Shown in pieces: positions 24,787-54,888 of a DNA stretch of 64,000 bases. The stretch's first letter is position 1, and each line of letters begins with the position of its first letter. Origin of the DNA: Terriglobia bacterium (GTDB taxonomy: Bacteria > Acidobacteriota > Terriglobia > 20CM-2-55-15); contig CBDAOY010000008.1 in the NCBI GenBank assembly GCA_965198225.1, forward strand, positions 1,120,001 to 1,184,000. Reading direction: 5' to 3'. The notes beneath the pieces are model-generated. The model saw only the letters and a list, made by a program, of their open reading frames with translations, ran no database searches and was not told where the DNA came from. Both the position numbers and the translations under genes were made by a program.

Positions 24787-27700
24787 ATGCGGGCTACCGA
24801 GCGCACAAGGATTTGGCTCTTCTTCGCGATTGGCGTCTGCTTCCTGCTCAGCCAAGCAGTCATCGTTCTCGCCCAACGTCTTCCGATAACGAGCTACGCT
24901 CGCCGACGGGCTGGCTCATGAGCGCGTCAAGTGCGTTTTTCAGGATTCGAAGGGTTTCATCTGGTTCTGTACGCTGAATGGATTGAGCCGATATGACGGT
25001 TACCGTTTCGCGACCTACGGCACCGAAGACGGGCTCCCGCACGTTTCGATCAACGATTTCCTGGAGACGTCGACCGGCGAATACTGGGTCGCGACCAACG
25101 GCGGGGGCGTTGCCCGATTCGATCCGGAAGCTGCTCTTCCGTCCGAGGGGCCGTTGTTCACCGCGCACTCGGTGGGCGAGGGGACGCCGACGGGATCCGC
25201 GATGGACGACCTCGGGGGAAGGGCCGGTCCGCGACCGAACCGCGTCAATGTGTTGTACGAGGACCAGCGCAGGCGACTCTGGGCCGGTACCGACGACGGC
25301 TTGTTTCGTCTCGACGGGGCGACCGACTCGCCCGGGTTCCAGCGAGTCGATCTGGATTGGCCCCTCCAGCCTGGCCAGTTTCTAAATGTCTGGACTTTGA
25401 TCGAGGGTCCTGACGGCAGTCTGTGGCTCGGCACATCGATCGGGCTGACCCGACGGTTTCCTGACGGTCGTGTGGCGCACTACGACATGAGCCAGGACGG
25501 AGAGGAACGTGCCGTGTGGGCGTTACTGATCGAAAGTGAAAGGCTGTGGATCGGTAATGGGGCAGGGCTAACGATCTTGTATCCCGAAGCGGCCTCGACG
25601 GCCCACTCCGATGCTCGTGTGCCCTGGCGGCGGCTTCTGACCGACAAGTCCACACTGCCCTCAACGCCGGGCGAGGCGCTATGGGTGACACGTGCGGATG
25701 GGTTGGTCGACGAGCATGTCCGGACCATCCATCAAACCTCCGACGGGCGTGTCTGGCTTGGCACTAACGGAGGCGGGTGGATTGGCTTAGGCGGAGGCGG
25801 GCTAACCGAATTCGACGGCGGCGCCTTCAGGAGCTACACGCCCTCGGACGGGCTGACCGACGACATGATCATCGACCTCACGGAGGACCGCGACGGGAAT
25901 CTCTGGGTGGGCACCGCTACCCAAGGGGCAATGAAAATCGCGACACACGGATTCACGGCCTATGACGAAACCGACGGAGTGAGTAACACTCTTGTCGCGT
26001 CGATCTTCGAGGACCGAAACGGCGCTCTATACGCCGTGGGTCCCAGACCTGTCATCAATCGGTTCGATGGACGACGGTTTTCCTCGATTCGGCCGGTACT
26101 GCCTGATGCGCCCACCGCGGCCCTGAACAGATGGTATTACTCCGCGGTTCAAGACCGGGCCGGGGAGTGGTGGGTGGGGACCAGAGAAGGTCTGCACCGC
26201 TTCGCGAAAGCCGACAGGGTCGACCAGATCACCGAGCGGTATCCCAAGGCGATATACACAACCCATGACGGACTGGTCGGCAACCAGATCTCGACCCTCT
26301 ATGAAGACTCACGCGGGGATATCTGGTTTGGGACCGAAGATGAAGACGTCCTCACAAGGTGGGAACGTTCCACCGCGACGTTTCACCAGTACTCGGAACG
26401 GAACGGCTTGCCGGCTTCCGAGCGGCCGAATACGTATTCAGAAGATCGATCGGGTAACCTGTGGATCGGCTTCGATCGTGGCGGACTCGTACGGTACCGC
26501 GCCGGTCGTTTTGTGCAGTTCACGGACATCACCGGTTCCCCGAGGAGTCGGATCAACCAGCTGTATCTGGACCGGTCTGGAGGACTGTGGATAGTGACCG
26601 CTGCTTCCGGCGTGATCCGCATCGTTAATCCAAACGCGGATCACACCAAACTTGTGACCCATACGCCCGCCTGGGGACAGCCCGCTTGCGAAGCGAGGTC
26701 CGTTACAGAAGATCCGTGGAGACGCCTCTATATAGGAACGGCATGTGGCGTGGACAGGATTGATCCCACGACCGGCCGGATCAAACACTACACGACCGCG
26801 GACGGACTCGGCTCGAACGACGTGTTGACGACCTTCCGTGACAGCCGCGCAACTCTGTGGTTCGGTACGCAAGGAGGGATCTCTCGACTCATCCCGATAA
26901 AGGACGAGTTGGTACAACCGGCGCCCATCCTGATCCGCGGCGTTCGCATCTCAGGTCAGCCCTATCCCGTGTCGGAATTAGGAAACGCACTGATCCAAGA
27001 TATCGAGCTCACGCCGAGTCAAAACGAGATTGAAATCGACTACGTCGGCCTGAGCTTCGCCCTGGGCCGCCGGCTGCAGTATGAGTACATGCTCGAGGGC
27101 GCCGACGCGGACTGGAACGAGCCGACCGATCAGAACACGATCATCTACGGCAACCTGTCGCCGGGCCAATACCGCTTCCAGGTGCGCGCACTCGATGCCG
27201 ATGGCCGCAGGAGCCCGGCGCCAGCCGTGATGGCCTTCACGATCCTCCCCCCCATCTGGCAGCGCGGATGGTTCTTCGCCCTTTCAGCGCTACTCCTTTC
27301 CTCGCTGGCCTACACCGCGTACCGTTACCGCCTGGAACGTGTCCTCCAGGTCCAACGCATGCGCCTGCGTATTGCTGCCGACCTCCACGATGACATCGGG
27401 GCAGGCCTGTCACGGGTGGTCCTCCTGAGCGAGGTCTTGAAACGTGAGGCGCCGCTCGATGAGCAGGCGTTCGGCACACTGACAAAGATTGGCGACACCG
27501 GGCGAGAGTTGGTCGATTCCATGGCGGACATCGTATGGGCGATGAACCCGCGACGCGACGACTTGCGAAGCCTGGTTCTGCGTGTGCGACAGTTCGCGTC
27601 CGACTTGCTCGAGAGCAAAGGAATTGAATGGGAGTTTACACCGCCGGAAGAGCTCGAGAATATCAAGATCTCGCCAGATCTGCGACGTCACGTCCTGTCG

Positions 27701-27970
27701 ATTTTCAAAGAGGCGCTCCACAACATCGTGCGTCATTCCGAGTGCAAGTCTGTCTCGTTACAGTTTCTGTTGAATGGTGACTTCCTCGAAGCCGACATTC
27801 GAGATGACGGACGTGGGTTCACCAACGCAGCCGATGACTCAACGTGGAGGCGCACAGGCAGCGGGTTGATCAACATGCAGCAACGTGCGGTGGAACTGCA
27901 CGGGGAGCTGAAGATCGAATCGTCTCCGGGGAGCGGTACGCTGCTAAAACTGAGGGTGCCGGTCGACTAA
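24787..27970 (+). CDS. Sensor histidine kinase 1 (Reg_prop beta-propellers, Y_Y_Y, TM, HisKA_3/HATPase); frameshifted near 24897 as assembled
   Basis: Signal peptide MRATERTRIWLFF..AQRLPITSY is joined to the 24983 ORF if 2 nt are restored (TACG vs TACACG in the paralog). Repeated ED..G.LW.GT, YRFQVRA, RIAADLHDDIG H-box, GSGLINM G2 box. Confidence 0.88.
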
Positions 27971-27989
27971 CTCGCATGTCCATGCGATT
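27970..27989 (+). promoter_or_regulatory. 9-2-9 palindromic box upstream of the response regulator
   Basis: ACTCGCATG-TC-CATGCGATT, with -10-like TAGAGT at 28011. Confidence 0.75.
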
Positions 27990-28046
27990 GTGCCCCAACC
28001 CCGCCCGAGTTAGAGTGGACATCCATTGAAACCGAAAGAGACGCGG

Positions 28047-28697
28047 ATGACGGTGAACGAAACCATTCGAGTGGCAATCGTCGAAGATGAGGAAACCGTC
28101 TGCCACAGCCTCGGGGTGCTCATCGACGGCACTCCCGGTTACACTTGTGTCGGAATGTTTCCTTCAATGGAAGATGCACTCGAGCGAATACAGGATGACG
28201 TCCCGGACGTACTGTTACTGGATATCCATCTTCCCGGAATGTCCGGCACTGAAGGCGCGAAAGTCATACAAGAGCAATATCCGGCTGTTCAAGTACTGAT
28301 TCTCACCGTCTACGACGATGAAGAAAAGGTGTTCGAATCGATCTGCAATGGCGCCAGCGGCTACTTGCTCAAGAAAACACCACCTGCCCGGCTATTGGAG
28401 GCAATCCAGCAAGCCCACGAAGGCGGATCTCCGATGACCCCCGAGATCGCTCGTAAGGTTGTTGATCTTTTCCAGAAGACGGGTCCACCGGAGACCGTGG
28501 ACACGGACCTGACCCCTCAAGAGGTCCGGTTGCTAAGAATGCTGGCTGACGGCTACAGCTACAAAGCCGCGGCCGACCGGCTCAAGATCAGCATCAACAC
28601 GATCCGCGTCTACATCCGCAGCATCTACGAAAAGCTCCACGTCCACTCCAAGTCGGAGGCCGTGAGTAAGGCGATCCGCACACATATCATCGATTAG
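28047..28697 (+). CDS. NarL/LuxR-family response regulator
   Basis: REC domain (IVEDE, LLDIHLPG, GYLLK) plus LuxR HTH (LTPQEVRLL..GYSYK..IYEKLHVHSKSEAV). Confidence 0.95.
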   Translation: MTVNETIRVAIVEDEETVCHSLGVLIDGTPGYTCVGMFPSMEDALERIQDDVPDVLLLDIHLPGMSGTEGAKVIQEQYPAVQVLILTVYDDEEKVFESICNGASGYLLKKTPPARLLEAIQQAHEGGSPMTPEIARKVVDLFQKTGPPETVDTDLTPQEVRLLRMLADGYSYKAAADRLKISINTIRVYIRSIYEKLHVHSKSEAVSKAIRTHIID

Positions 28698-28771
28698 CGC
28701 GCCACACATCTCCGAAGCAGCATTTATCAAAGGGTTTCCGACACCATCTCGGCAATGTGCTGAGACCGGAA

Positions 28772-28791
28772 AGCCGCATGTTCATGCGATT
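28772..28791 (+). promoter_or_regulatory. 9-2-9 palindromic box upstream of kinase 2
   Basis: AGCCGCATG-TT-CATGCGATT, then 19 bp, then CGTAGAAAT. Confidence 0.75.
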
Positions 28792-29029
28792 CTCCACGTG
28801 CTGGCCATGTCGTAGAAATTGGACTGACGTGACATTCACATGAGGCGTGCCACAAAAGCTCAGAATAGGCGATGTCGTTTGCGTGTCCATTACCCTCCCG
28901 TTTTCCGGCTCACGTCAGAACGCACTTGACTCTCCGGAATGACGTCTGTACGCGTATAATCCGTCTAAGTTTCTGTCCTAAGCCGCGCGATCGGAGAAAG
29001 CGGTCAGTCTCCTCGAACCGGTCCCGCGG

Positions 29030-32000
29030 ATGACGCCCCTGCAGTCTATGAAATCGAAGGCAGTTCCGTTCTTACTTGCCACAGGTCTTGCCCTGTCGCT
29101 CGCTCCACCGGTCGTCGTCCGGGCCGAGCGCTTGCCGATCACGAGCTACACGATCGCCGACGGTCTGGCTCATGAGCGGGTCAAGTGCGTTTTTCAGGAT
29201 TCGAAGGGTTTCCTGTGGTTCTGCACGTCGAACGGTTTGAACCGCTACGACGGTTACCGTTTTGCGACCTATCGCACCGAACACGGACTTCCGCATGTTT
29301 CGATTAACGACATGCTGGAAACGCGGTCTGGCGAATACTGGATCGCGACCAACGGCGGGGGTGTGGCCCGATTCCACCCCGATGGGACTCTCGACAGCCA
29401 CTCGCCGCTATTCACTGCCTACTCCCTGATCGAAGAGGGCACGACCGGAGCCGCGGCGGACGATCTTCGAGGAACTGCGGGTCCGCGACCCAACCGTGTC
29501 AACGTCTTGTACGAAGACCGCCGTCGACAACTATGGGCGGGCACCGACGACGGTCTGTTTCGCCTCGATACGACGGACCACTCTCCCACATTCAAGCGAG
29601 TCGAACTTGATTACCCCCTGGTTTCGGGTCAATTCCTGGCCATCTGGACTTTGATAGGAGACGATGAAGGCAATCTGTGGCTCGGCACATCGCGAGGGCT
29701 GACCAGACGGTATCCAGACGGCCGGACAGCGCACCACTCTGTCACGCCGGACCAGGACAACCTTTCGGTGCGAGCCCTGCTGGTAGAGGGCGGGAGGCTC
29801 TGGATCGGTCACGAAGCAGGTCTGACGATCGTTTATCCCGAACCGGCCTCGATGAGCGATTCCGATGCCCCGTTGCCGTGGCGGCGACTTCTATCCGACA
29901 GGTCCACATTGCCGTCAACTCCGGGCGACGCCATCTGGGTGACCCGCGCCGACGGTCTCGTCGACGAACACGTCCGCACGATGTATCAGACCTCCGATGG
30001 ACGAATTTGGCTGGGCTCCAACGGGGGCGGGTGGATTGGCTTCGGTGGGGGCGGACTGACCGAATTCGACGGCAAAACGTTCAAGAGCTACACACCGGCA
30101 GACGGCCTGGCCGACGACATGATCGTCGACCTCGCCGAAGGCCGGGACGGCAACCTCTGGGTTGGCACCGGATCCCGCGGCGCGATGAAGATTTCAACAC
30201 ACGGGTTTACTTCTTACGGCGAGATGGACGGCGTGGGCCATACCGTGGTGCGATCTCTTTTCGAAGACCGTAACCACAACATCTACGCGGTCGGAGACAG
30301 GCCGTTTATCAATCGCCTCGACGGAGGACGCTTCACTCAGATCGAACCGGTTCTGCCGGTGACGCCCACCGAAACGCTCGTGTGGAATTACAGCCTCGTT
30401 CAGGATCAAACGGACCACTGGTGGATCGGAACGCGGGAAGGCCTGTACCGCTTCGCGAACACCGATAGCATCGACCAGCTTGCAAACGAGCAAGCGACGA
30501 CCATCTACACGACACGAGACGGACTCGCCGGCAACCGGATTCTGAGTCTTTATGAGGACTCGCGGGGCGACATCTGGTTTGGAACCGAGGGCCGGGAGGT
30601 GCTTTCGCGATGGGAGCGCTCTACCGGCCTGTTTAATCACTATTCCGCGCAGAATGGCTTGCCCCCTTCCCAACCGTACGCTTATGCGGAGGACCGATCG
30701 GGCAACTTGTGGATTGGTTTCAATCGCGGTGGAGTGGTCCGCTACAGGGACGGACGGTTCGTGACCGTCCCGGACCTTCCCGGGGCTTCAAGCAGTCGGG
30801 TCTCGGGGCTGTACCTGGATCACGCCGGTCGAATCTGGATCCTGACCTCGGTCTCTGGTGTCACTCGCGTCGACGATCCCGACGCCGATCGACCCGGCTT
30901 TGTCACCTACACGTCCGCCCAAGGTTTGTCCAGCTGTGAGGCTACCTCAATCACGGAGGACGCGTACGGGCGGGTCTATGTTGCAGGATTCTGTGGCGTG
31001 AACCGGATCGACCCGGTAACAGATCGGATCAAGCACTACACGACGGCCGACGGGCTGGGCTCCAACGAAGTGGAGAGCGCATTCCGTGACAGCGGCGACA
31101 CTCTGTGGTTCGGCACGAAGAGGGGTATCTCACGGCTGATTCCCAGAGAAGAACCTCCGGAACAGCCTCCGCCTGTCCTGATCCGCGGCCTGCGCATCTC
31201 GGGCCAGCGCTATCCGGTGTCGGAGCTGGGCGATGCCTTGATAGATGAGATCCAGCTTGGACCGGCTCAGAATCACATCGAGATCGATTTTGTCGGCCTC
31301 AGCTTTGCTCTGGGTCGTCAACTTCGTTATGAGTACGTACTCGAAGGCGCCGACACGGATTGGAATGAACCGACCGACCAGAACACCATCATCTACGGCA
31401 GCCTTTCACCGGGCCAATACCGCTTCCAGGTGCGCGCCCTCGATGCCGATGGTCTAACGAGCACCACGCCTGCTGTGATGGCCTTCACGATCCTTCCGCC
31501 CCTGTGGCAACGGGGATGGGTACTGAGCCTGGCGGTTCTTGTGATCGCTTCGCTCGCGTATGGGCTGTACCGGTACCGCCTGGAACAGCTACTCCACGTC
31601 GAGCGGATGCGCACCCGGATCGCGGCAGACCTCCACGACGATATCGGCGCAGGACTCTCGCGGATAGTGCTTCTCAGTGAAGTTCTCCGGCGTGAAGAGG
31701 GACCCAATGAGCGAGGCTCCGAGCGGTTGACCAAGATCGCGGACACGGGGCGAGAGCTCGTCGATTCGATGGCCGACATCGTCTGGTCGATGAACCCGCT
31801 GCGCGATGACTTGAGGAGCCTGGTCCTGCGGATTCGGCAGTTCGCCTCGGATTTGTTGGAGATCAAGGGTATCGAATGGGAGTTCCGGTCACCCGAAATA
31901 CTGGACGACGTCAAGCTTTCGCCGGACGTGCGACGGCATGTCCTGTCGATTTTCAAGGAAGCCCTCAACAACATCGTGCGACATGCCGACTGCCGGTCGG

Positions 32001-32218
32001 CTGCGCTGGACCTCAACATGACCGATGGTTCACTCGAAGCCGAGATTTGCGATGACGGCCGTGGTTTCGTCACGTCCGAAAAGGACTCCACGTGGAGGCG
32101 AAGTGGGAGCGGGTTGATAAACATGCAGCGGCGGGCGATAGAGCTCGGCGGTGAGTTGAAGATCGATTCGTCTCCCGGAAGGGGCACCCGGATAACGATG
32201 AGCGTGCCGCTCCGCTGA
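29030..32218 (+). CDS. Sensor histidine kinase 2 (paralog of kinase 1, intact)
   Basis: Signal peptide, propeller repeats, Y_Y_Y, TM, RIAADLHDDIG, DDGRGF, GSGLINM. Confidence 0.93.
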   Translation: MTPLQSMKSKAVPFLLATGLALSLAPPVVVRAERLPITSYTIADGLAHERVKCVFQDSKGFLWFCTSNGLNRYDGYRFATYRTEHGLPHVSINDMLETRSGEYWIATNGGGVARFHPDGTLDSHSPLFTAYSLIEEGTTGAAADDLRGTAGPRPNRVNVLYEDRRRQLWAGTDDGLFRLDTTDHSPTFKRVELDYPLVSGQFLAIWTLIGDDEGNLWLGTSRGLTRRYPDGRTAHHSVTPDQDNLSVRALLVEGGRLWIGHEAGLTIVYPEPASMSDSDAPLPWRRLLSDRSTLPSTPGDAIWVTRADGLVDEHVRTMYQTSDGRIWLGSNGGGWIGFGGGGLTEFDGKTFKSYTPADGLADDMIVDLAEGRDGNLWVGTGSRGAMKISTHGFTSYGEMDGVGHTVVRSLFEDRNHNIYAVGDRPFINRLDGGRFTQIEPVLPVTPTETLVWNYSLVQDQTDHWWIGTREGLYRFANTDSIDQLANEQATTIYTTRDGLAGNRILSLYEDSRGDIWFGTEGREVLSRWERSTGLFNHYSAQNGLPPSQPYAYAEDRSGNLWIGFNRGGVVRYRDGRFVTVPDLPGASSSRVSGLYLDHAGRIWILTSVSGVTRVDDPDADRPGFVTYTSAQGLSSCEATSITEDAYGRVYVAGFCGVNRIDPVTDRIKHYTTADGLGSNEVESAFRDSGDTLWFGTKRGISRLIPREEPPEQPPPVLIRGLRISGQRYPVSELGDALIDEIQLGPAQNHIEIDFVGLSFALGRQLRYEYVLEGADTDWNEPTDQNTIIYGSLSPGQYRFQVRALDADGLTSTTPAVMAFTILPPLWQRGWVLSLAVLVIASLAYGLYRYRLEQLLHVERMRTRIAADLHDDIGAGLSRIVLLSEVLRREEGPNERGSERLTKIADTGRELVDSMADIVWSMNPLRDDLRSLVLRIRQFASDLLEIKGIEWEFRSPEILDDVKLSPDVRRHVLSIFKEALNNIVRHADCRSAALDLNMTDGSLEAEICDDGRGFVTSEKDSTWRRSGSGLINMQRRAIELGGELKIDSSPGRGTRITMSVPLR

Positions 32219-32222
32219 ACCT

Positions 32223-32242
32223 GATCGCATGCCCATGCGATT
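32223..32242 (+). promoter_or_regulatory. 9-2-9 palindromic box (near-perfect) after kinase 2
   Basis: GATCGCATG-CC-CATGCGATT, in the position equivalent to the box after kinase 1. Confidence 0.75.
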
Positions 32243-32272
32243 TGGTTCGCAGGGTCAGAGGTACCCCAACTT

Positions 32273-32308
32273 CACTCAAGATCCGAGGCCATCAGTAAGG
32301 CGATCCCC
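32273..32308 (+). pseudogene. Relic of a second response regulator (C-terminal end only)
   Basis: CACTCAAGATCCGAGGCCATCAGTAAGGCGATC = HSRSEAISKAI, versus HSKSEAVSKAI at the end of the intact regulator. Confidence 0.7.
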
Positions 32309-32439
32309 GCGTATGACCCCCTTTGGCCCTCGATCGGGCCGCATTCCTCACCACAGCAATCCTTAGCCAAAGGAGGTGCGGGCCCGCACCGGCCGCGGCA
32401 CGATGCTTTGCATCCGTCTCCATCCTGCCGAGAACGAAA

Positions 32440-32459
32440 AACTACATGTTCATGCGATT
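32440..32459 (+). promoter_or_regulatory. 9-2-9 palindromic box upstream of NHLP precursors 1 and 2
   Basis: AACTACATG-TT-CATGCGATT, then 19 bp, then TTCAAAAAT. Confidence 0.75.
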
Positions 32460-32578
32460 ACGCCAACAATGACCCTCCTTCAAAAATGGAACTGACGCAA
32501 CAGTGACAGGAGTTGCACCAAGGAGAACAACGAGGATCTCGGCAAAGCAGATCTTCTCTAACAATCAAAGGAGACACG

Positions 32579-32950
32579 ATGATGCAGAACGATGACAATT
32601 CCGCGAACGACCCACAGATGCGAGTGATCGCAAAGGCCTGGAAAGACGACGGTTTTCACCAGGAGCTGCTCAACGATCCGAAAGCCACGATCGAAAAGGA
32701 ACTGAGTGTCAAGCTGCCGGAGGGCTTGAGCGTCCAGGTTCACGAACAGTCCGAGAGAGTGCTTCATCTGCTGTTGCCGCCCAGACCTGAAGAAAGCGAG
32801 CTCTCCGACGCCCAGTTGGAAGCGGTCGCGGGCGGCGGTTTCAATTCCCAAGTGGGATTCAACCCGCAACCGGAACCGCCGGGCATGGAGGCGGTGTCGA
32901 ACCAATTCAGCAGGTGGGGAGGCGGCGGGTTCAACTGGTTCCTTCATTAG
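32579..32950 (+). CDS. NHLP-leader RiPP-like precursor peptide 1
   Basis: VIAKAWKDDGF..ELLNDPKA...HLLLPPRP..ELSDAQLEAVAGG leader. 37-aa core GFNSQVGFNPQPEPPGMEAVSNQFSRWGGGGFNWFLH. AAGGAG RBS. Confidence 0.92.
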   Translation: MMQNDDNSANDPQMRVIAKAWKDDGFHQELLNDPKATIEKELSVKLPEGLSVQVHEQSERVLHLLLPPRPEESELSDAQLEAVAGGGFNSQVGFNPQPEPPGMEAVSNQFSRWGGGGFNWFLH

Positions 32951-32998
32951 GCGGGTCGCAATCCGGCGAATCGCCACAAACGAATCAAGAGGTAAGAG

Positions 32999-33325
32999 AT
33001 GCAGAAGAACGAAGATGAAATCAGAGAACTGTGGGCGAACCTCGTGACCCGATCCTGGGACGATCCGTATCTGAGGCGGCGGTTGCTCGAAGAGCCGGCC
33101 TCGGTGCTCGACGAGAACGGTGTCGAAGTTCCCGGTGAGGCGACGATCAAGACCTTCGAAGACGACGGCGACACCATAGTTCTGCCGATCGCGCGGAAAC
33201 CCGCGGACACCGAGCTGGCCGAAGAGCAACTGGAGGCGGTGGCGGGAGGAGGCATCGTAATAGATTACAAGTCACCCGCTCGATCTATCCGGAGCTTCGG
33301 CAGCCTTCAGATGTTCGGTCGATAG
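32999..33325 (+). CDS. NHLP-leader precursor peptide 2
   Basis: LVTRSWDDP..RRRLLEEP...ELAEEQLEAVAGG leader. Core GIVIDYKSPARSIRSFGSLQMFGR. Confidence 0.9.
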   Translation: MQKNEDEIRELWANLVTRSWDDPYLRRRLLEEPASVLDENGVEVPGEATIKTFEDDGDTIVLPIARKPADTELAEEQLEAVAGGGIVIDYKSPARSIRSFGSLQMFGR

Positions 33326-33409
33326 GCATCGGTCAGTGTGAGGGAGGTCGTCCAAGAGCTCGAGATTCATCTCTTGAGCGGCCAATCCTCACTCTACAGA
33401 CGAAGCGAC

Positions 33410-33429
33410 AATCACATATTCATGCGATT
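33410..33429 (+). promoter_or_regulatory. 9-2-9 palindromic box upstream of NHLP precursor 3
   Basis: AATCACATA-TT-CATGCGATT, then 19 bp, then CGTACAAAT. Confidence 0.75.
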
Positions 33430-33511
33430 TCCAACCCATTGACCGTGCCGTACAAATTTGAATAACGCGGCAGTCCACTCGAGTCGCGACAAAAATCAGG
33501 AGGCAAGAAAA

Positions 33512-33841
33512 ATGTCAGGAAACGAAAACGAAATCGAAGAACTGTGGGCCACGCTCGTGACCCGATCCTGGGAGGATCCGCACTTGAGGCGGCGGCTACT
33601 CGAAGAGCCCGCCGCGGTTCTCCATGAAAGCGGTGTGGCGGTTCCCGAAGGGGCCACGATCAAGACTTTCGAGGACGACGGCAACACCATAGTTATGCCG
33701 GTCGCACAGGAACCCGAAGACACCGAGCTGGCCGAGGAGCAACTCGCGTCCGTAGCGGGGGGCATCATCGTTATCGAGGGCGGCAGGTCGGCTCTGCCCT
33801 CGATCCGGAGCTTCGGCAGCCTTCAAATGTTCGGTCGGTAG
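33512..33841 (+). CDS. NHLP-leader precursor peptide 3 (paralog of 2)
   Basis: ELAEEQLASVAGG leader end. Core IIVIEGGRSALPSIRSFGSLQMFGR. AGGAGG RBS. Confidence 0.9.
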   Translation: MSGNENEIEELWATLVTRSWEDPHLRRRLLEEPAAVLHESGVAVPEGATIKTFEDDGNTIVMPVAQEPEDTELAEEQLASVAGGIIVIEGGRSALPSIRSFGSLQMFGR

Positions 33842-34001
33842 AGCCGTGCGACATACGGGCGGTCTCCCCGGCCGCCCGAGTCCATTCATCATAAACACGC
33901 CAGCTTGCTTTCCAGCTTCCAGTAGAACGCACCGCCACTCCGGCAGCAGCCTTCCGCACTGACTTTTCCCACGCGTTCTCAGCCTTCGGCTTAGACGAGA
34001 A

Positions 34002-34021
34002 AACCACATGTTCATGCGATT
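34002..34021 (+). promoter_or_regulatory. 9-2-9 palindromic box upstream of the giant surface protein
   Basis: AACCACATG-TT-CATGCGATT, then 19 bp, then CGTAGAAAT. Confidence 0.75.
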
Positions 34022-34096
34022 TCGCCAACGCCGACCCTCCCGTAGAAATGTAGTCAGCCTGGCGGTCGTACATCCGCCAGGCGCTGGAGGGATGAG

Positions 34097-37000
34097 ATGC
34101 GATCGGTATTGAGAGCCTTCTTGGTCTGCTTTTTGTTCGGAATCGTAGTTTCCCCGGGAGGGGCCAACAACCAGGGTAAAGGAAACGTCGACCAGAGCAT
34201 ACCGGCGACCTTCGTGCAATTGCCGATGGCTTTCGAGCCCAACCAGGGTCAGGCGGACGAAAAGGTCCGGTTCATCTCCCGTGGCAGGGGCTATACGCTC
34301 TTCTTGACTCCAGAAGAAGCGGTTCTTCTGCTCCGTGAGCGCGACGCCAGCAAGGCTCGGGCCGGTGCGGTGCGGATGCGGTTCGTCGGTGCCGACCCCG
34401 CAACGACGATCACGGGGCGTCAAGAACTCCGCGGCAGGAGCAACTACCTCATGGGTCGCGATCCCGCCAATTGGCGGACGAACATCCCGAACTTCGGCCG
34501 GGTCCATTACAGAGGACTCTATCCCGGCGTCGACGCCACCTTCTATGGCAACCAGGGACGGCTCGAATATGACTTCATCGTCGAGCCGGGCATACGGCCC
34601 GAAACGATCCGGCTCGGATTCGACGGGATCCAGGAAATTGCGGTAGGCACTGATGGCGACCTGCTGCTCGAGACCGCGGTCGGTGAAGTTCGGCTGAGCA
34701 AACCGATCCTCTACCAGGAAACAGCTGGTGGGAGAAACGAGATTGCCGGTCAGTACCTCTTGCTTGAAAACAACGAGGTCGGTTTCACCGTCGGAACATA
34801 TGACGCCGACAAACCGCTCGTGATCGACCCCCAGCTCCTGTATGCGACCTATCTCAGCGGCAGCACGACCGAGGACGGCTTTGCGGTCGCCGTCGACAGC
34901 GCCGGCGACGCGTATGTGACCGGCCAGACGTTTTCAGCCAACTTCCCGACTTCCTTCGGAGCCTTCCATACGCTCCCATTGGGCAGTGGCGAGGTTTTCG
35001 TCACGAAGTTGCGCCCGACAGCGGCCGACGGACAGGGTTCCGACCTGATCTATTCCACTTTGATCAGCGGTAGCGCGAACGACATCGCCCGAGACATTGC
35101 CGTACACAACGCGACTGGTAACGCCTGCGTCGTCGGCGATACCCTGTCGCGCCTGAGTTTCCCCATCACAGCGAACGCTTTCCAGAACGCAACCGTCGGC
35201 GCTGGGGACGTCTTCATGACTTGCCTGAACTCAACCGGCACCGCCCTCGTCTACTCCACGTTCCTTTCGGGCAACAACGGCTCCGTAGGTCGCGGTATCG
35301 CGGTCGACGACTCCAGCGGAGTGTACGTGACCGGTCGGGCAGACTCGGCGGATTTTCCGACGAAAAACGCGTTTCAGTCTGCACACGGTGGAAATACGGA
35401 CGTATTCGTCGCGAAGATCGATCCTACCCAAAGTGGCGCGGCATCCCTCATCTACTCGACACTCCTCGGCGGATCTTCCGACGAAAACGGCGAAGACGTC
35501 GCCGTGGACTCGTCTGGTGCCGCCTACGTCACCGGACAGACCCTGTCGACGAACACCACTGGTACGCTTTTCCCCATTCGTGGTGCCGCTCAATCCAGTC
35601 CCGGCGCCAATGGTTCCAGGGACGCATTCGTGGCAAAGATCGATCCGTCACTAGTCGGCGGCCCGTCCCTCATCTATTCAACCTTCCTCGGCGGCAGCGG
35701 CGTTGAGAACAGTACGGTCGAAGACGGAGGCATCGCTGTGGATTCTCTCGGGGCCGCCTACGTGACGGGGGCAACCGTTTCAGCCGATTTTCCGGTCACT
35801 GCAGGCGCGTACCAATCCGTCGCAGCCAGCCTCGGCGACGCCTTCCTGGTGAAGCTCAACCCCGCGGGCGACCTGTTCCTCTATTCGACATACCTCGGAG
35901 GAAGCGCTTCGGACAAAGGCACGGCCGTCGCCGTCGACTCGTCGGGGCGGGCCTACGTAACGGGTTATACCGGATCAGCGGACTTCCCGATCGCGGATGC
36001 TTTCCAGGTTCTGAACAACGGCGGCCAGGACGCCTTCGTGACCCAGATCGATCCGTCGCAGAGTGGAAACGCCTCTCTGGGTTACTCCACGTATCTTGGC
36101 GGCAACTCCGTCGACTGGGGCTATGGCATCGCAGTCGATAGCAGCGGTGCTGCACACGTCGCCGGAACGACTGCCGGCAATACCTTCCCGGCCACCGCCG
36201 GCGCATTCCAGACCCAAACCTCAGGCGGTCGGGATGCGTTTCTAGCGAAGATTGGGTCGAGCAACAGGGCGCCACGAGCCACCGACGACGACTACGAGGT
36301 GGATGAAGACAACGGGTTAACCATAGCTGCCCCCGGAGTATTAACCAACGATACGGACGACGATGGCGATCCGCTTACCGCCGATCTGATTGACGGCGCC
36401 ACAGACGGCACGCTAACTCTGAATTCGAACGGATCTTTTACATATGATCCCGACCCCGATTTCAACGGAGCGGACACCTTCACCTACGTTGCCAACGACG
36501 GAACGGAGGCCAGCAATGTCGCCACCGTGACGATTACCGTGCGGCCGGTCAACGATGCCCCGCTGGGGGTCGACGACGCCTACACGGTGAACGAGGATGC
36601 AACTCTCGACGTGGCGCCGCCCGGCGTCCTCACGAACGACACGGACGCCGATCTGGATGCGCTGACCGCAACCCTGGTGACCGATGTCAGCAACGGCACG
36701 CTGACGCTGATCGCGGATGGATCCTTTAGGTACACTCCGAATGCCGATTTCAACGGGGCCGACACCTTTACCTACAACGCCAACGATCCGTCTGGTGCCG
36801 CGGCCTCCGCCACCGTGACGATTACCGTGATCGCGGTCAACGATCCTCCGAACGCGCGAGATGACTCGGTCACCACGCCAGAGGATACTCCGATCACGAT
36901 CACGGTTCTCGCCAACGACGACGATCCCGACGCTGACCAACTCACCGTCACAGCTGTCTCCGATCCGTCCAACGGCACCGTGCGGATAGAGCCCGACGGC

Positions 37001-40000
37001 ACTTTGACGTTTATACCAGGCGTGGATGTCAACGGCGCTGACACCTTCACCTACGACGTCGATGACGGTCAGGGTGGACGCTCTACCGCCACAGTCGACA
37101 TCACGGTGACGCCCGTCAACGATGCCCCCATCGCTGCAGACGACGCCTATTCCGTTGACGAGGACGACGCTCTCGTCGTCCAGAACGTCCCGGGAGAAGA
37201 CATACTCGAAAACGATTCCGATGTGGACGGGGATGCTCTGACCGCCGTACTGATAACCGACGTCAGCAACGGAACCCTCGCTCTGGCCCCAAACGGGTCG
37301 TTTACCTACACACCGAACGCCGATTTCAACGGCACTGACAGCTTCACCTACGTCGCCAATGACGGGACCGAAGACAGCAACGTCGCCACCGTCAACATCA
37401 CCGTCGATCCCGTCAACGATCCTCCAGTCGGTGTCGATGACGCTTACGCCGTCGACGAAGATCAGGTGCTCACGATCGCGGCTCCGGGTCTGCTGGACAA
37501 CGATCTCGACGTCGACGGCGACGCTTTGGCGTCCGGTCTCGGTGCGAATCCCGGCAGCGGGACCCTCACGCTGAACGGAGATGGCTCGTTTACCTACACA
37601 CCGAATGCGGATTTCAACGGCACCGATACGTTCCAGTACCTCCCGAGAGACGGGACCGTAGACGGCAATCTCACTACGGTTACGATCACGGTGCGGCCGG
37701 TCAACGATGCCCCTGTCGCGGCCGGCGTCAGCTACTCGACCGATGAAGACACGGCCTTGACGATCGCTGTGCCTGGCGTGCTGGGGAATGATACGGACGT
37801 TGACGGAGATGCTTTGACGGCGGTTCTGTCTACCGACGTCAGCAACGGAACCCTCGCTCTGGCCCCCGACGGGTCGTTTACCTACACACCGAACGCCGAT
37901 TTCAACGGCGCTGACAGCTTCACCTACGTCGCTAATGACGGGACTGAAAACAGCAACGTCGCCACCGTCAACATCACCGTCAATCCGGTTAACGATCAGC
38001 CTGTTGCCACCGATGATGTCTACGCGGTGAACGAGGACACCCCGCTCGACATTCCAGCTCCCGGTGTCTTGACCAACGACTCCGACCCCGACGGCGACGC
38101 CCCGTCCGCGGCACTGGCCACGGATGTCAGTAACGGGACGTTGACCTTGAACCTCGACGGTTCCTTTGACTACAACCCGAACCCGAACTTCTCCGGCGTC
38201 GACTCCTTCACCTACGTCGCCGCTGACGGCTCGCTCAACAGCAACCCGGCCACCGTCACGATCACCGTCACTCCGGTCAACGATCCTCCGACGACTGTCG
38301 ATGACACGGCCGTCACCGGGGAAGACTCGCCCGTCAACATCAACGTTCTCGCCAACGACAGCGACCCCGAGGGGGATCCTTTAACGGTCACCGCCTCGGA
38401 TCCGCCCAACGGCACAACCCGGGTCAACCCTGACCTCACGGTGACCTACACGCCCGATCCCGACTTCAACGGTGCGGATTCCTTCACCTATGACGCCGAT
38501 GACGGAAACGGTGGACGCTCCACCGGCACGGTCACCATCACCGTCGATCCGGTTAACGATCAGCCTGTTGCCGCCGATGATGTCTACGCGGTGAACGAAG
38601 ACACCCTGCTGAACATTCCGTCTCCCGGCGTGCTGACGAACGATTCCGACCCCGACGGCGATGCCCTCTCCGCGGCTCTCGCCACCGATGTCAGCAACGG
38701 AACGTTGACCTTGAACCTCGACGGTTCCTTTGACTACAACCCGAACCCGAACTTCTCCGGCGTTGACTCCTTCACTTACGTCGCCGCAGACGGGTCGCTC
38801 AACAGCAACCCGGCCACCGTCACGATCACCGTCACTCCGGTCAACGATCCTCCGATCGCCAATCCCGATTCGGTGACAACCGAGGAGGATCGGCCGGTGA
38901 CTGTGGATATCCTCGCGAACGATTCCGATCCTGATGGGGACCCGCTGGGCGTAGATACATGCAGCGATCCAGTGTTTGGCCGGGTTGTTATCAACACGAC
39001 CAACAACGCCGTCACTTACACTCCGGACCCCGACTTCAACGGTGAGGACACCTGCAACTGTGTCGTCACCGACGGCCGGGGCGGTTCCGCCACAGCGCTC
39101 GTCACCTTCATCGTCACGCCCGTCAACGACGCTCCGTTCGCCGTCAGCGACGACTACACGGCGATCGAAGACACGACGCTCAACGTTCCGGCTTCCGGAG
39201 TCCTGACGAATGACACAGATGTGGACGGCGATGCGCTGACGGCGGTTCTCGCCACCAACGCTGCCAACGGGACTGTGGCTCTCGCCGTCGACGGGTCATT
39301 CACTTACAAACCCGATCCCAACTTCAACGGCTTCGACTCCTTCACCTATACCGCCAGCGATGGCACCGACAACAGTGGTCCGGTGAACGTCAATATCGAT
39401 GTCCTCGCGACAAACGATCCTCCGACCGCTAACCCCGACTCCGCCACGACCGAGGAGGATCGGCCGGTGACTCTGGACATCCTCGCGAACGATTCCGATC
39501 CTGATGGGGACCCGCTGGGTGTGGACACATGCAGCGATCCAGTGTTTGGCCGGGTCGTTATCAACACGACCAACAATGCCGTCACCTACACCCCCGACCC
39601 CGACTTCAACGGCGAGGACAACACCAACTGCATGATCAACGACGGCCAGGGCGGTTCGGCCACGGCGCTCGTCACCGTTATCGTGACGCCGGTCAACGAT
39701 GCTCCGTTCGCCGTCAGCGACGACTACACGGCGATCGAAGACACGACGCTCAACGTTCCGGCTTCCGGAGTCCTGACGAATGACACGGATGTGGACGGCG
39801 ACGCTTTGGCAGCGATACTGGTCACCGACGCTGCCAACGGCACGGTGGCTCTGGCTGCCGACGGCTCATTCACCTACATGCCCGATCCCAACTTCAACGG
39901 CTTCGACTCCTTCACCTACACCGCCAGCGATGGCACCGACAACAGTGGCCCGGTGAACGTCAATATCGAGATCCTCCCGACCAACGATCCTCCCATTCTC

Positions 40001-42911
40001 AACCCCGACTCCGCCACGACCGAGGAGGACCGGCCGGTGACTGTGGACATCCTCGCGAACGATTCCGATCCTGACGGCGACCCGCTGGACGTCGATCAAT
40101 GCAACAACCCGCCGAACGGGCGGATCGTCATCAACGTCGACGACAGCATTACCTACATTCCGAACCCCGACTTCAACGGTGACGACGCCGCCGACTGCAT
40201 GATCAACGACGGCCAGGGTGGTACGGCCACTTCTCGCGTCACCTTCACCGTCAGACCCGTCAACGATCCCCCGGTAGGCGTGGATGACAGCTACACCGTC
40301 GATGAAGACCAGGTGTTGACCGTGCTGGCTCCAGGCGTCCTGGCCAACGACACCGATGTAGAAGGGGATCCTCTAAAGGCAATTCTTGTGACAGACGTCG
40401 CAGACGGTTCGCTCGCGCTGAATGCCGACGGGTCGTTCACCTACAAGCCGAATTCCGACTTCAACGGATCCGACGGCTTCACCTATGTCCCCAACGACGG
40501 GACCGTCGACGGGAACATCACCGCGGTCACGATTCGCGTCAATCCGGTCAACGATCCTCCGGTCGCAACCGATGACAACGCTTCCACATCAGAGGACACG
40601 TCCGTTACGATCGACGTCCTCGCGAACGACAGCGATCCCGATGGCGATGGCCTGAACATCACTTTGGTCTCGAATCCAGCTAACGGTGACGCCACGATCC
40701 AGGGAACCGGCATCGCTTACTCGCCGGATCCCGATTTCAACGGACCTGACACCTTCAGCTACACCATCAGCGACGGTCAGACATTAGCTACCGCTACGGT
40801 CGACGTCGACGTAACAGCCCTCAACGACGCTCCCGTTGCAGCCGCCGACGCGTACTCGGTGAATGAGGATCAGATTCTGACCATTCCCGCTCCTGGCGTG
40901 CTCGGCAACGACTCCGATGTCGACGGTGATGCGCTGATCGCAAAACTCGGTCCAGATCCTCCTCCCTGGATAGCCTTGAACGCTAACGGGTCTTTTACGT
41001 ATACACCGGAGAACAACTTCAACGGCGTCAGGACCTTCACTTACGTCGCAAGCGACAGCACGGTCGACAGTAACATCGCCACCGTTACGATCACGGTCAA
41101 CCCGGTCAACGATCCGCCGATCGCCGGTGACGACACGGCAACCACTACGGAAGGAACGTCCGTTGTCATCAATGTCCTCGGCAACGACTCGGATGTCGAT
41201 GGTGACACCTTGAACGTTACCGCCGTCACGGATCCTCCGTCCGGGGATGCAACAATCAACACGGACCGCACGGTGACGTACAACCCCGACTCCGGATTCA
41301 CGGGCACCGATGCCTTCTCTTACACAGCCAGCGACAGCACCGGTCTCACCGCAACGGCCAACGTCACGGTCACCGTGAACACTGGTGGGATCGAGGTGTC
41401 GATCGACATCCGGCCCGGAAACCCGAACAACCGGATCAATCTCCAGTCCAACGGGTTGTTACCTGTCGCAATCTTCAGCACCCCCGAGTTCGACGCGACC
41501 ACGATCGATCCCGCGACGGTGACCCTGGCAGGAGCGGCCATTCGAGTCCTGAGAAACGGCAGACACCTCGTGGCACGGGTCGACCGCAACAGGGACGGTA
41601 TCCGCGATCTGCTCGCTTTCTTCCCGATATCGGAGCTCGAGTTGACGGTCCAGGATCAGACTGCAGTCCTGAGGGGTCGGACTGTCGACGGAACACGAAT
41701 CCGTGGTGAAGACTCCGTCCAGGTTTCTGACCGACAGGTTCGTCTCAGGAACAACGTCGTCTGGCCTTCGCCGCTGTACTCCACCCTGCAGGATGCGGTC
41801 GACGCTGTCCGGGATGGTGGCACGGTCCGGGTGCTAGCCGGTCGTCATGAAATCAATGAGCCCACCATTCTTGAAAGAGACGTGACGATTCGGGGAGGCG
41901 GCTGCGGCGAATGCCAGAAGCCTCGCAGCGCCGGTCGACCCAGAGGGCGAAGCACGGAGCTGGTCGGACCGACACCGACTACCGTCGTTGAAGCCGATCT
42001 TGCAATCGGCATGTTCACTTATGCAGGCGGCGGAGGCGGCGGGGGGGGGTATTGTCGGACGCGGGGGCGGGGGTGGCAAGATCAGAGACATCGCTCTGCA
42101 TGGCTTCGACGCCAGCATCGTCAGCATCACCACGAGCCGCCCGCTATCGGTCGAAAACGTCCTGATGGCGGACACAACGCGCGGCATATTGTGGATGGCT
42201 CCAGCCCCGCTTTCCGTCGATCAAGTGACGGTGAAAGGCGTTCTATGGAATGGCATCTCCCTCGTCGGCGACGGGGAGTTTGACGCTCCGTACCATCTGA
42301 GCAATACCGTCATGGAGGAAATCACGAACATCGGAATCCTCATCGTCGACAAGCCCGGAACCTGCAACTCGGATCACACGGTGACGAAACAAGACATACG
42401 TCAGACTTCGGGCGGTGGACTTGTGGTCATACGAAGCGGCGTGTGTGTTTTCGATTCGTTCTTCCTGGCCAACGCCTACTCCGGCATCCGCGCAATCGAC
42501 TCCGCGGTCTTTGTCCAGAATACTCTGGTCGCCGGCACGATTCCCCGCTCCGACGGCGGATACGGCGACGGCATCCTCGTCGCGAGTTCCGAAACACCTG
42601 GATCCGACGTCACTCTAGTCAACGCCACGCTTCAGACCAACAGCCGGACCGGCCTGTCCAACTTCGGCAGCAAGGTGACGATCGAGGAAGCGGACTTCGT
42701 CTGCAACATCGGATTCGACATGCACGCTGAATCCCAATATCCCATCAGCTTCACCGGACAACCGGGAGACACGGAGTTGAACATACCGTTCGACTTCGAT
42801 TTTCCGGATGAGGACAAGGTCACCTGCGGCTGCGGTGGCCAGGAACATGAGTGCAGTGTGATAAGTAGCGTGGGAGCACTACCGGCGATCGGGGGCGATG
42901 AGGAACCTTAA
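34097..42911 (+). CDS. Giant secreted/surface protein: SBBP beta-propeller repeats, 18 tandem-95/cadherin-like repeats and a C-terminal beta-helix; frameshift at the G-run near 42041
   Basis: Signal peptide, AFEPNQGQ N-domain, AVDSSG.AYVTG.T.S.DFP repeats, 18 [VT]ND.P...ED repeats, a DIRPG..N.IN domain and a YSTLQDAVDA beta-helix cap. The helix continues in the 41988-42911 frame. Confidence 0.85.
36263..41380 (+). repeat. Array of 18 ~95-aa acidic Ig/cadherin-like coding repeats
   Basis: Counted from the translation. Units 7 and 9, and units 10-11 and 12-13, are near-identical at DNA level. Confidence 0.85.
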
Positions 42912-42920
42912 ACCAGGACG

Positions 42921-42974
42921 ACCAGGAGGCTCGGAGAATAGAATTCTCTCCGTGCCTCCGCGCCTCCGTGGTTA
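42921..42974. repeat. Fold-back built from 9-bp CTCCGTG(C/T)C units
   Basis: GGAGGCTCGGAG ... CTCCGTGCCTCCGCGCCTCCGTGGTT between convergent genes. Confidence 0.65.
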
Positions 42975-42992
42975 AAACCGGTTCTGGTCGGT

Positions 42993-43421: not shown

Positions 43422-43533
43422 GATTGAACTCCTTTTTAAACAGTTGAAATGCTCGCCCAGACGGGCAAAAACGGAAAATAAGCCTATATATCATGCACTT
43501 ATCGATCACTTTTGGGAAGAATATCATTCCCCC

Positions 43534-43562
43534 TTGACTACCGAACATTTGTTCGGTATAAC
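43534..43562 (+). promoter_or_regulatory. Sigma70 promoter with a LexA (SOS) box in the spacer
   Basis: TTGACT-17 bp-TATAAC. The palindrome TACCGAACATTTGTTCGGTA (GAAC-N4-GTTC) lies at 43539-43558, directly before imuA. Confidence 0.85.
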
Positions 43563-43568
43563 ACTCCA

Positions 43569-45931: not shown

Positions 45932-45981
45932 ACCGCGCAATCTCGCGATCAATCAACATCTCGCAAACCGTAACAAAGATT

Positions 45982-46055
45982 TTTAACCACGGAGGCTCGG
46001 AGGCACAGAGATTTTGATTTTTAGTTCTCCGCGCCTCCGTGTCTCCGTGGTTAAA
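45982..46055. repeat. Fold-back of 9-bp units between imuB and dnaE2
   Basis: TTTAACCACGGAGGCTCGGAGGCACAGAG ... CTCCGCGCCTCCGTGTCTCCGTGGTTAAA. Confidence 0.75.
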
Positions 46056-46075
46056 CCTCTTTCTCTTTGTTCCCG

Positions 46076-54613: not shown

Positions 54614-54704
54614 GGCTGATCCTCCTGAACAGATCGAATTGATGGAAAAGTCCCTGCATTGTAGCAAAGTGGGTAGTCCGTAGGCCGTTGTCCTTCGAGT
54701 GCGG

Positions 54705-54888
54705 GTGTAGGTGCCGTCTATGATCGGAACCATTCATCAGCGTCGGGCCCACCGTCCCCCTCCTGACGAGAACTTGAGCGTTCAAGTACCGATAGCAGTG
54801 CGCGGGTGTATGGAGAAAGACAGCTGGTCCGGTCCCCCCACGCCTCGCTCGAACCGAAACGATGTACACTCATGGAGCGCACCTACAC
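54705..54888. mobile_element. 184-bp GTAG-type REP doublet, copy 2
   Basis: GTGTAGGTGCCGTCTATGA ... TCATGGAGCGCACCTACAC. Same length and core as 9317-9500. Confidence 0.75.

Follow-up and report, generated by a model that had tools for sequence, protein, structure and literature searches.

A shared palindromic box precedes regulator, sensor kinase, giant surface protein and orphan NHLP peptide genes in a Terriglobia genome

Results

Genes of the island

The subject of this study is a strain-specific island of ~18 kb in the genome of a Terriglobia bacterium from soil, in which a two-component system, a giant surface protein and three NHLP-type peptide precursors are encoded side by side. The stretch of DNA that we analyzed, referred to here as the window, is 64 kb long (contig C8, positions 1120001-1184000, of genome G000, an assembly of 6.4 Mb in 9 contigs that is 97% complete), and the island occupies its positions 24.6-43.0 kb. 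Every gene of the island is on the + strand, in the order HK1, NarL-type regulator, HK2, P1, P2, P3 and giant gene (Table 1). An earlier reading of the letters alone, the sequence-only reading, had proposed this order of kinases, regulator, NHLP genes and giant gene in one orientation, and it is confirmed by the open reading frames (ORFs) and their Pfam and TIGR scores, with corrections to HK1, to a regulator relic and to the giant gene. We conclude that the wiring of the island, with its shared box, regulator pair, giant gene and peptides, is real and unusual.

Table 1. Genes and boxes of the island in window coordinates (aa, amino acids; nt, nucleotides).
Feature	Position	Strand	Details
HK1, propeller/Y_Y_Y/HisKA_3 sensor kinase, frameshifted	24787..27970 (main ORF 24983-27970)	+	Pfam
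Box 1, perfect TCGCATG TC CATGCGA	27972..27987		centre 46.5 nt before regulator start codon
NarL/FixJ-type response regulator, receiver (REC) + GerE helix-turn-helix	28026..28697	+	Response_reg 81.5, GerE 53.7 bits
Box 2, upstream of HK2	28774..28789		then -10-like TAGAAAT
HK2, intact sensor kinase, 1,062 aa	29030..32218	+	Pfam
Box 3, directly behind HK2 stop codon; duplicate of box 1; no gene after	32225..32240
Relic of second regulator gene, 34 nt	32273..32306	+	82% identical to 28644-28677, regulator gene 3' end
Box 4, putative P1-P2 promoter	32442..32457
P1, NHLP precursor, 123 aa	32579..32950	+	TIGR03793 85.6 bits
P2, NHLP precursor, 108 aa	32999..33325	+	TIGR03793 55.9 bits; core ends in SIRSFGSLQMFGR
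Box 5, putative P3 promoter	33412..33427
P3, NHLP precursor, 109 aa	33512..33841	+	TIGR03793 54.5 bits
Box 6, putative giant-gene promoter	34004..34019
Giant secreted protein: DUF7948, SBBP propeller, 18 cadherin/Big_9 stretches	34097..42911	+	Pfam

HK2 has the complete layout of sensors resembling hybrid two-component systems, that is, a signal/first transmembrane segment (TM1), Reg_prop repeats (177 bits), a Y_Y_Y domain (54 bits) and a transmembrane helix, followed by HisKA_3 (35.5 bits) and HATPase_c (44.7 bits); its hydrophobic segments lie at residues 11-30 and 829-847 and its H-box reads HDDIG. The corresponding scores of HK1 are 141, 61, 34.5 and 39 bits, and the two kinases are 68.6% identical over 994 aa, in an alignment that begins only at HK2 residue 70. 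Relative to HK2, HK1 has a 2-nt gap at ~24897, because of which its signal/TM1 part (ATG at 24787, first 37 codons) is out of frame. HK1 therefore has the domains of the sensor kinase it had been taken for but not the continuous frame, and, as assembled, HK2 is the only kinase of the pair predicted to be an intact membrane sensor. The regulator has its receiver Asp within a DVLLLDIHLPG motif, and the pairing of a HisKA_3 + HATPase_c kinase with a REC + GerE regulator, all above the Pfam cut-offs, is that of the NarL/FixJ class.

A relic of a second regulator gene had also been claimed, and one exists, although it amounts to merely the 34 nt listed in Table 1. In addition, a 93-nt stretch across the HK2 3' end and box 3 has 75% identity to its counterpart at the HK1 3' end and box 1. 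From the relic and this 93-nt match it follows that the kinase-regulator unit was duplicated in tandem and that the second regulator was subsequently deleted.

The giant protein scored 216 bits for DUF7948, 117 bits for SBBP and, weakly, 27.8 bits for Beta_helix in a C-terminal frame. As assembled, its gene is in two frames that are split at a run of nine G (42033-42041). A short-read contig of sequencing run X1 has one base fewer at 42041, giving a single frame of 2,937 aa that ends at 42911, so that the frameshift is probably a homopolymer error.

The peptide precursors

P1, P2 and P3 all score above the curated TIGR03793 cut-off of 50.9 bits, which is exceeded at six places in the genome. 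Each leader ends in VAGG, a motif shared by all 16 family members that were aligned, and each gene is preceded by a Shine-Dalgarno motif (AAGGAG for P1). As claimed from the letters, the cores are free of Cys: there is not one in P1-P3, the metal-binding Cys of nitrile hydratase having been lost, and the P1 core is rich in G, F, N, P and W. The leader of P1 is nearest to those of precursors linked to LanM in this genome (contig C6) and in congener G002, at 36-45% identity (36-38% in alignment A2, and 45% over 80 aa to that of G002). A P1 orthologue, P0016, is 69-76% identical with a conserved core. Two antisense ORFs over P1-P3 (223 and 303 aa) have no family match and were taken as spurious.

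P2 and P3 are 74% identical, with a ratio of nonsynonymous to synonymous substitution (dN/dS) of 0.23 in the leader and 0.26 in the core at a dS of 0.6-0.8. Because of these ratios we conclude that both have been kept by purifying selection since their duplication. Their family is narrow, with 14 proteins among 32 candidates from a search of 5.8 billion proteins. In an alignment of 16 sequences, 33 leader columns are invariant, while the tails vary around a loose ..K-S-F-G..S-L motif that they have in common. Orthologues of P1/P2 at ~70% identity, P0002 and P0016, occur in other assemblies, on contigs of 124 kb and 318 kb, respectively. A scan of genome contigs for the P2/P3 family returned just two congeners and one 41% leader match, in a Humidesulfovibrio metagenome-assembled genome, and a scan of metagenome contigs returned two short contigs at 36-42%.

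The genome has two more precursors of the P2/P3 type, in tandem at C7:576.5-577.4 kb. G-P-C motifs recur in their tails, and within 20 kb there is neither a maturase nor a kinase nor a box. A contig of run X7, ~94% identical to the window over 32574-33286, also carries P1-P2; its first 789 nt have no match to the window at >=90% identity, so that in a related strain the region preceding P1 may differ in sequence or be further diverged.

The palindromic box and its promoters

The box is a palindrome of two inverted 7-nt halves with a 2-nt spacer, TCGCATG-NN-CATGCGA. Allowing at most one mismatch, CATRTYCATGCGATT was found at six sites in the window (27975, 28777, 32228, 32445, 33415 and 34007), all of them on the + strand and inside the island, relative to 0.00 expected from 100 shuffles. 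The box is perfect before the regulator gene and behind HK2, and its left half is degenerate at the P1, P3 and giant-gene promoters. The sequence-only reading had placed it before the regulator, HK2, the precursors and the giant gene, which is correct except for P2, a gene that starts 48 nt behind P1 and has no box of its own. The P1 promoter stretch (32434-32478) is 87% identical to that of the giant gene (33995-34040).

In eight promoters (five of the island, one on contig C7 and two in G002) the distance from the box to a -10-like element (TAGAAAT, TAGAGT, CAAAAAT or TACAAAT) is equal, with the box centre at about -43. Between 27.8 and 34.3 kb there is no sigma-70 consensus promoter on the + strand and one on the - strand (2.0 expected), and the terminator-like sequences in the same interval, four against 5.6 expected, are not above chance. 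Since the box spacing is equal and the + strand lacks a sigma-70 consensus, the layout suits activator-dependent promoters. Enrichment and a fixed distance from -10-like elements are also what would be expected of an inverted-repeat operator for a NarL/FixJ-class regulator, as which we predict the box to serve.

Perfect CGCATGNNCATGCG sites were counted against a reversed control in this genome and in 33 other genomes of the family. This genome has eight perfect sites and none in the control, whereas the other 33 have 0-2 each, as do their controls, and none of those sites is beside a kinase or regulator homologue. A genome-wide search with up to two mismatches returned 17 matches, and among the ten that were examined are sites before a second DUF7948/SBBP gene (1,533 aa, C7:998 kb), at C4:199 and 202 kb, and near an RCC1-repeat gene (C9:1136 kb). 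The two C4 sites precede both genes of a third pair of propeller kinase and LuxR-type regulator (C4:192-212 kb). A perfect site at C8:92026 is inside a release-factor-like coding region and was counted as chance. A divergent RCC1-repeat protein gene is also present at the C4 locus, and the box on C9 (1125-1145 kb) adjoins another; the regulon may include RCC1-like secreted proteins.

Origin and relatives of the island

The genus set comprises four genomes, G000 and its congeners G001, G002 and G003. Homology to G002 and G003 ends at window position 24598 and restarts at 43012, and the flanking B3_4 and SnoaL-like genes are direct neighbours in both. Because the flanking genes are adjacent in two congeners and homology stops and restarts at the island edges, the 18-kb block is an insertion in G000. 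The HK2-P1-P2-P3-giant junctions recur in independent contigs of three runs from three studies (X1, X3 and X5), each contig showing 0-7 differences.

A related block occurs in G002 (C1:482-498 kb), in the order kinase, box, regulator, box and giant gene. Its kinase is 82% identical to HK1 and has an internal TGA, its regulator is 86% identical, and its giant gene (58-81%) is interrupted by an IS91-type transposase and an integrase. This block has neither a second kinase nor an NHLP gene, and no HK2-like kinase was found in G001 or G003 at E<=1e-20. Within G000, a paralogous box-giant locus on C7 matches two stretches of the window at 81.6%, namely 33395-33427, which holds the P3 box, and 33838-34244; the ~410 nt holding P3 are absent from it but both boxes are kept. 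P3 may have been lost there or gained in the island.

A repeat resembling repetitive extragenic palindromes (...CTCCGTGCCTCCGCGCCTCCGTGGTT...) is present between genes at window 42950-42985, 45985 and 53193, one copy thus being at the right end of the island. Its 12-nt core has 83 copies in the genome (~0.8 expected), some of which flank a PD-(D/E)XK_3 gene at C5:289.8 kb. The island is followed immediately by a mutagenesis cassette of imuA-like (RecA-fold), imuB (IMS family) and dnaE2 genes (window 43512-49228), which is kept in the congeners. Further on, two overlapping ORFs on the - strand (53217-54733) are the N- and C-terminal parts of one Amidohydro_1 domain, probably split by a frameshift or homopolymer error. 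A TldD/PmbA pair (10.6-14.0 kb) and a methyltransferase gene (22.5 kb) were considered as partners of the peptides, but they are generic, lie upstream of the left boundary of the island, and no link was found.

Maturases and exporters in the genome

That the window holds no maturase or exporter was confirmed by a scan of its ORFs of at least 100 aa, in which YcaO, LanM, radical SAM and C39 matches were all lacking; every match in the genome lies outside the window. The whole-genome scan found a LanM, a TIGR03797 exporter, a C39 ABC gene that is split, and two SPASM radical SAM genes, but no YcaO (absent from all four genomes of the genus) and no PqqD-like recognition element. These contents fit the alternative in the sequence-only reading that the precursors are processed in trans. 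A core rich in modifiable Cys/Ser/Thr and a neighbouring cyclodehydratase, LanM or radical SAM maturase, which are marks of the NHLP family, are both lacking at P1-P3.

LanM is present in G000 and G002 only. In G000 it is encoded at C6:466-469 kb, within a cluster (C6:460-470 kb) that has two ABC transporters and its own Cys-bearing NHLP precursor with a P1-like leader. The two SPASM genes were rejected as hidden maturases: that at C7:601.7 kb sits with a CofH/MqnC-like radical SAM gene and a methyltransferase gene, that at C7:1033.9 kb is an 817-aa radical SAM-methyltransferase fusion, and neither adjoins a precursor.

The TIGR03797 NHLP-type ABC exporter subunit (C5:656.3-659.2 kb) scored 921.7 bits in the genome search and 920.4 bits as a called ORF, relative to a cut-off of 709. 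It adjoins a Nif11-leader precursor (TIGR03798, 40.8 bits; cut-off 32.3). The core of this precursor is free of Cys and similar to the P1 core, both being rich in F, W and G and containing a 'PEP.G' stretch. The surroundings (C5:650.7-660.8 kb) have the appearance of a decayed NHLP/Nif11 export cluster, with an IS1182 transposase and fragments, a Ser/Thr kinase-TPR gene, a TIGR03796 stub, an intact TIGR03797, the Nif11 precursor and a DUF7005 gene. DUF7005 was dismissed as a maturase, as it occurs in G002 and G003 without an adjoining precursor, has no relative in the PDB at a meaningful E-value and no mention in the literature.

The only C39 peptidase domain of the genome belongs to a bacteriocin-type ABC gene at C5:290.2-294.7 kb. 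Between its halves are an HlyD gene and a Phd/YefM-type antitoxin pair, an arrangement that resembles a ~3-kb inversion; an invertible switch was rejected, as no flanking inverted repeats were found. Congener G003 has an intact C39 ABC transporter of 697 aa.

A few kb from the island site, the interval from msrA to a peptidyl-prolyl isomerase gene differs among the genomes. In G002 (L041:6592-17454) it holds GSDH, four radical SAM genes (three with a B12-binding domain) and a transposase, with no NHLP match; in G003 (L038:923-7351) GSDH, an NHLP precursor, a transposase and a truncated radical SAM gene; and in G000 a methyltransferase gene only.

Linkage of kinases and peptides

Is the association of kinase and peptide genes conserved? 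Each congener has one member of the P2/P3 family (58-62% identity), each in a different context, and within 20 kb of these three there is no kinase, regulator or giant match and no box. Beyond the genus, 17 of 250 genomes of the class have an NHLP match above the cut-off. Linkage was assessed by tblastn (E<=1e-8) at 17 loci from 14 Terriglobia genomes of other genera (2.9-20 kb each, six of them <10 kb; one 1.7-kb contig and two matches inside 472-482-aa frames were left out). At none of these loci was there a match to the ectodomain or the kinase core of HK2, to the regulator or to the N-terminus of the giant. Six of them had an NHLP-type ABC2 homologue, three of which also had a C39 ABC, one had LanM and two had B12-radical SAM genes; this association is the one described in the excerpted text of Haft et al. 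(2010; PMC2887384).

Discussion

A regulon that captured peptide genes

In our assessment, a little better than an even bet, the island is an accessory two-component surface-protein regulon that, in G000 alone, also captured three orphan NHLP peptide genes by promoter duplication, the handling of these peptides being left to functions in trans. The core of the block, which G002 has as well, consists of the kinase, the NarL-type regulator and the giant DUF7948/SBBP/cadherin protein, with the box before the regulator and giant genes. In G000 the kinase-regulator unit was duplicated in tandem, HK2 being intact, HK1 now frameshifted and the second regulator reduced to 34 nt, and the box promoter of the giant gene has copies in front of P1(-P2) and P3. 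We envisage that a dimer of the phosphorylated regulator binds the box, centred ~43 nt upstream of the -10-like element, and that this switches on the gene of the regulator itself together with HK2, P1-P3, the giant gene and, on another contig, the second box-bearing DUF7948/SBBP gene. If Bacteroidota sensors of similar architecture are a guide, the kinase would sense an extracellular glycan or envelope cue, not peptides. The peptides, following what is usual for their family, would be cut at VAGG and exported in trans, for which the candidates are the NHLP/Nif11-type ABC exporter (C5:656-659 kb) and the bacteriocin-type C39 ABC (C5:290 kb), and they would act outside the cell, bacteriocin-like or otherwise, made along with the adhesin.

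Several observations weigh against this reading. The module appears dispensable and prone to decay, because HK1 is broken, the G002 kinase has a stop codon and the G002 giant gene is interrupted. The predicted export route, as assembled, looks damaged: the C39 ABC gene is in halves, model positions 1-416 being on the + strand and the ATPase (424-655) 2.2 kb away on the - strand, and TIGR03796, the peptidase-bearing partner of TIGR03797, is a 216-aa frame that covers only the last 157 model positions (554-710; 291 bits), beside IS1182 fragments. A TIGR03794 equivalog was not found in the genome, where the best match has 58.8 bits against a cut-off of 156. TIGR03797 itself is absent from the three congeners at E<=1e-120, and because these have the P2/P3 family, its exporter cannot be the general partner of that family. 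The binding of the regulator to the box is a prediction from position, symmetry and enrichment only, and no RNA run is listed as carrying the locus.

Some of the same facts would be explained if P1-P3 were hitchhiking remnants, that is, NHLP genes carried in by recombination and promoter duplication that yield no processed product because their peptidase and exporter genes are broken. We consider this unlikely. It accounts for the TIGR03796 stub beside IS1182 fragments, for the splitting of the sole C39 ABC gene across two strands, for the frameshift in HK1, for the absence of P3 from the paralogous C7 locus and for the decay of the module in G002. However, all three peptide ORFs are intact and have Shine-Dalgarno motifs, the low dN/dS of P2/P3 extends to the core as well as the leader, intact ~70% orthologues of P1 and P2 exist elsewhere, and the near-identical sequence recurs in contigs of three other runs; moreover, the exporter breaks could be recent, at the level of the strain, or derived from the assembly.

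Could a maturase act on the precursors from a distance? One LanM acts on many scattered precursors in the case of the prochlorosins. A comparable arrangement here would have the LanM of C6:466-469 kb dehydrate Ser in P1, with P2 and P3 left to an unrecognised maturase that is conserved in the genus, a proposal that we regard as improbable. The prochlorosin precedent (cf. PMC2887384) favors it, as do the resemblance of the P1 leader to those of LanM-linked precursors and the high conservation of the P2/P3 leader, which implies a conserved partner. But because the cores of P1-P3 have no Cys, no lanthionine ring is possible, and LanM occurs in two of the four genomes of the genus whereas the P2/P3 family occurs in all four. 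Other maturases offer little help, since YcaO and a PqqD-like element are lacking, the contexts of the two SPASM genes do not look like those of modified ribosomal peptides, and the B12-radical SAM enzymes of the congeners have no close orthologue in G000 (best 28-32% identity).

The sequence-only reading had favored a pheromone loop, in which exported P1-P3 cores bind the propeller ectodomain of HK2/HK1 and, through the regulator, raise expression of the peptides, HK2 and the adhesin in the manner of quorum sensing. The same box does stand at the peptide genes, HK2 and the regulator, so that feedback on all of these would follow from any signal passing through the regulator; what sets the G000 version of the module apart is both HK2 and the three peptide genes; and in streptococci, pheromones with Gly-Gly leaders are sensed by a kinase and drive bacteriocin loci (PMC3171984 and PMC5295010, in the parts available). 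We nevertheless judge the loop very improbable, as G002 has the module without NHLP genes, none of the three P2/P3 orthologues in congeners adjoins a kinase or box, none of the 17 loci in other genera has a kinase or regulator match, the P3 ORF is missing from the C7 paralogue although both boxes are present there, the third box-bearing kinase-regulator pair (C4) has no peptide gene, the divergence between HK1 and HK2 is spread evenly (62-86% per domain), none of it being particular to the sensor, and kinases of this architecture abound (36,370 representatives at E<=1e-30). The loop thus received no positive support, and the conserved linkage of kinases and NHLP genes in relatives, the lack of which the sequence-only reading had itself named as grounds for giving it up, was not found; neither is there a C39 exporter in the locus, the sole C39 being at C5:290 kb. 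Furthermore, the accessible text on Y_Y_Y/propeller sensors of Bacteroidota has them regulating glycan utilization (bioRxiv 10.64898/2026.01.10.698779). Co-folding of the HK2 ectodomain (residues 31-828, with an alignment of 62 rows) and the P3 tail (79-109) returned a score of 0.00, which is no answer and evidence neither way.

To go by titles and the opening lines of abstracts, no such circuit has been described for NHLP in Acidobacteria, nor for NHLP with two-component or quorum systems. If HK2 had indeed turned receptor for the Cys-free NHLP-derived peptides that came in with it, in a Gram-negative, propeller-sensed peptide quorum circuit coupled to a giant adhesin, a prospect to which we give very little credence, this would be the first NHLP peptide with a signaling role and the first peptide ligand of a Reg_prop/Y_Y_Y sensor. 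The present evidence reveals no new kind of signaling system.

As a captured-peptide regulon, the island would nevertheless be of interest in three respects. It would preserve a stepwise record of the recruitment of ribosomal peptide genes into an existing regulon, in which a kinase-regulator unit was duplicated in tandem, one of the regulators was lost and an activator-dependent promoter was copied to orphan precursors. TCGCATG-NN-CATGCGA provides a testable candidate operator, and a small putative regulon, for the very common and unstudied propeller kinases of acidobacteria. Lastly, the island draws attention to a narrow NHLP family that has Cys-free cores under purifying selection and no recognizable maturase.

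Comparison with known systems

NarL/NarP operators have the 7-2-7 form and the lux box is centered near -42.5. The predicted box is like both in its inverted 7-nt halves, 2-nt spacer and class II activator geometry, although its TCGCATG half-site is unrelated to the NarL heptamer.

P1-P3 resemble the NHLP/Nif11 families, as these are portrayed in the excerpted text of Haft, Basu and Mitchell (2010; PMC2887384), in having a long nitrile-hydratase-like leader with a VAGG cleavage motif, and in occurring as several paralogues per genome that are mostly far from a maturase, with TIGR03797 and a LanM cluster elsewhere. The same text notes frequent scattering of NHLP paralogues and gives this ABC system, not any maturase, as the best correlate of the family. 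P1-P3 differ from those families in that their cores are Cys-free and, for P2/P3, not hypervariable (core dN/dS of 0.26), that the exporter set of G000 is incomplete, with a TIGR03796 stub and no TIGR03794 equivalog found, and that they sit in a predicted two-component regulon with copied activator promoters, a setting without parallel at the 17 Terriglobia loci. As to proteusin-type clusters, G002 and G003 carry such genes near the island site, whereas G000 has no cluster and no close orthologue of the enzymes, and P1 is just 35% identical to the G003 precursor.

Among Gram-positive bacteria, bacteriocin regulation by pheromone peptides in three-component systems, as for plantaricin and nisin (NisRK), offers a parallel. 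The kinase of the island is instead a large periplasmic tandem-propeller/Y_Y_Y protein with HisKA_3, not a polytopic HPK10 kinase, and its regulator is of the NarL/GerE and not the LytTR class; the island also has no adjoining C39 exporter, and its linkage is not conserved in relatives. What the island does have in common with the Blp/Com systems of streptococci, judging from the parts of the papers available (PMC3171984, PMC5295010), is the presence in one locus of Gly-Gly-leader genes and a kinase-regulator pair, with shared promoter boxes and with autoregulation built into the layout.

A close likeness of HK2 and its regulator is to the Bacteroidota sensors with tandem beta-propellers and Y_Y_Y, such as BguR, which has a GerE output (bioRxiv 10.64898/2026.01.10.698779, in its accessible part). 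Both have Reg_prop repeats, a membrane-proximal Y_Y_Y domain, a single transmembrane helix and output through a GerE/LuxR-type helix-turn-helix. The Bacteroidota proteins are hybrid two-component systems, whereas the island encodes a classical two-protein system, with a HisKA_3 kinase and a separate REC-GerE regulator, in the Acidobacteriota; and while their targets are polysaccharide-utilization loci, the putative targets in the island are giant repeat proteins and peptides.

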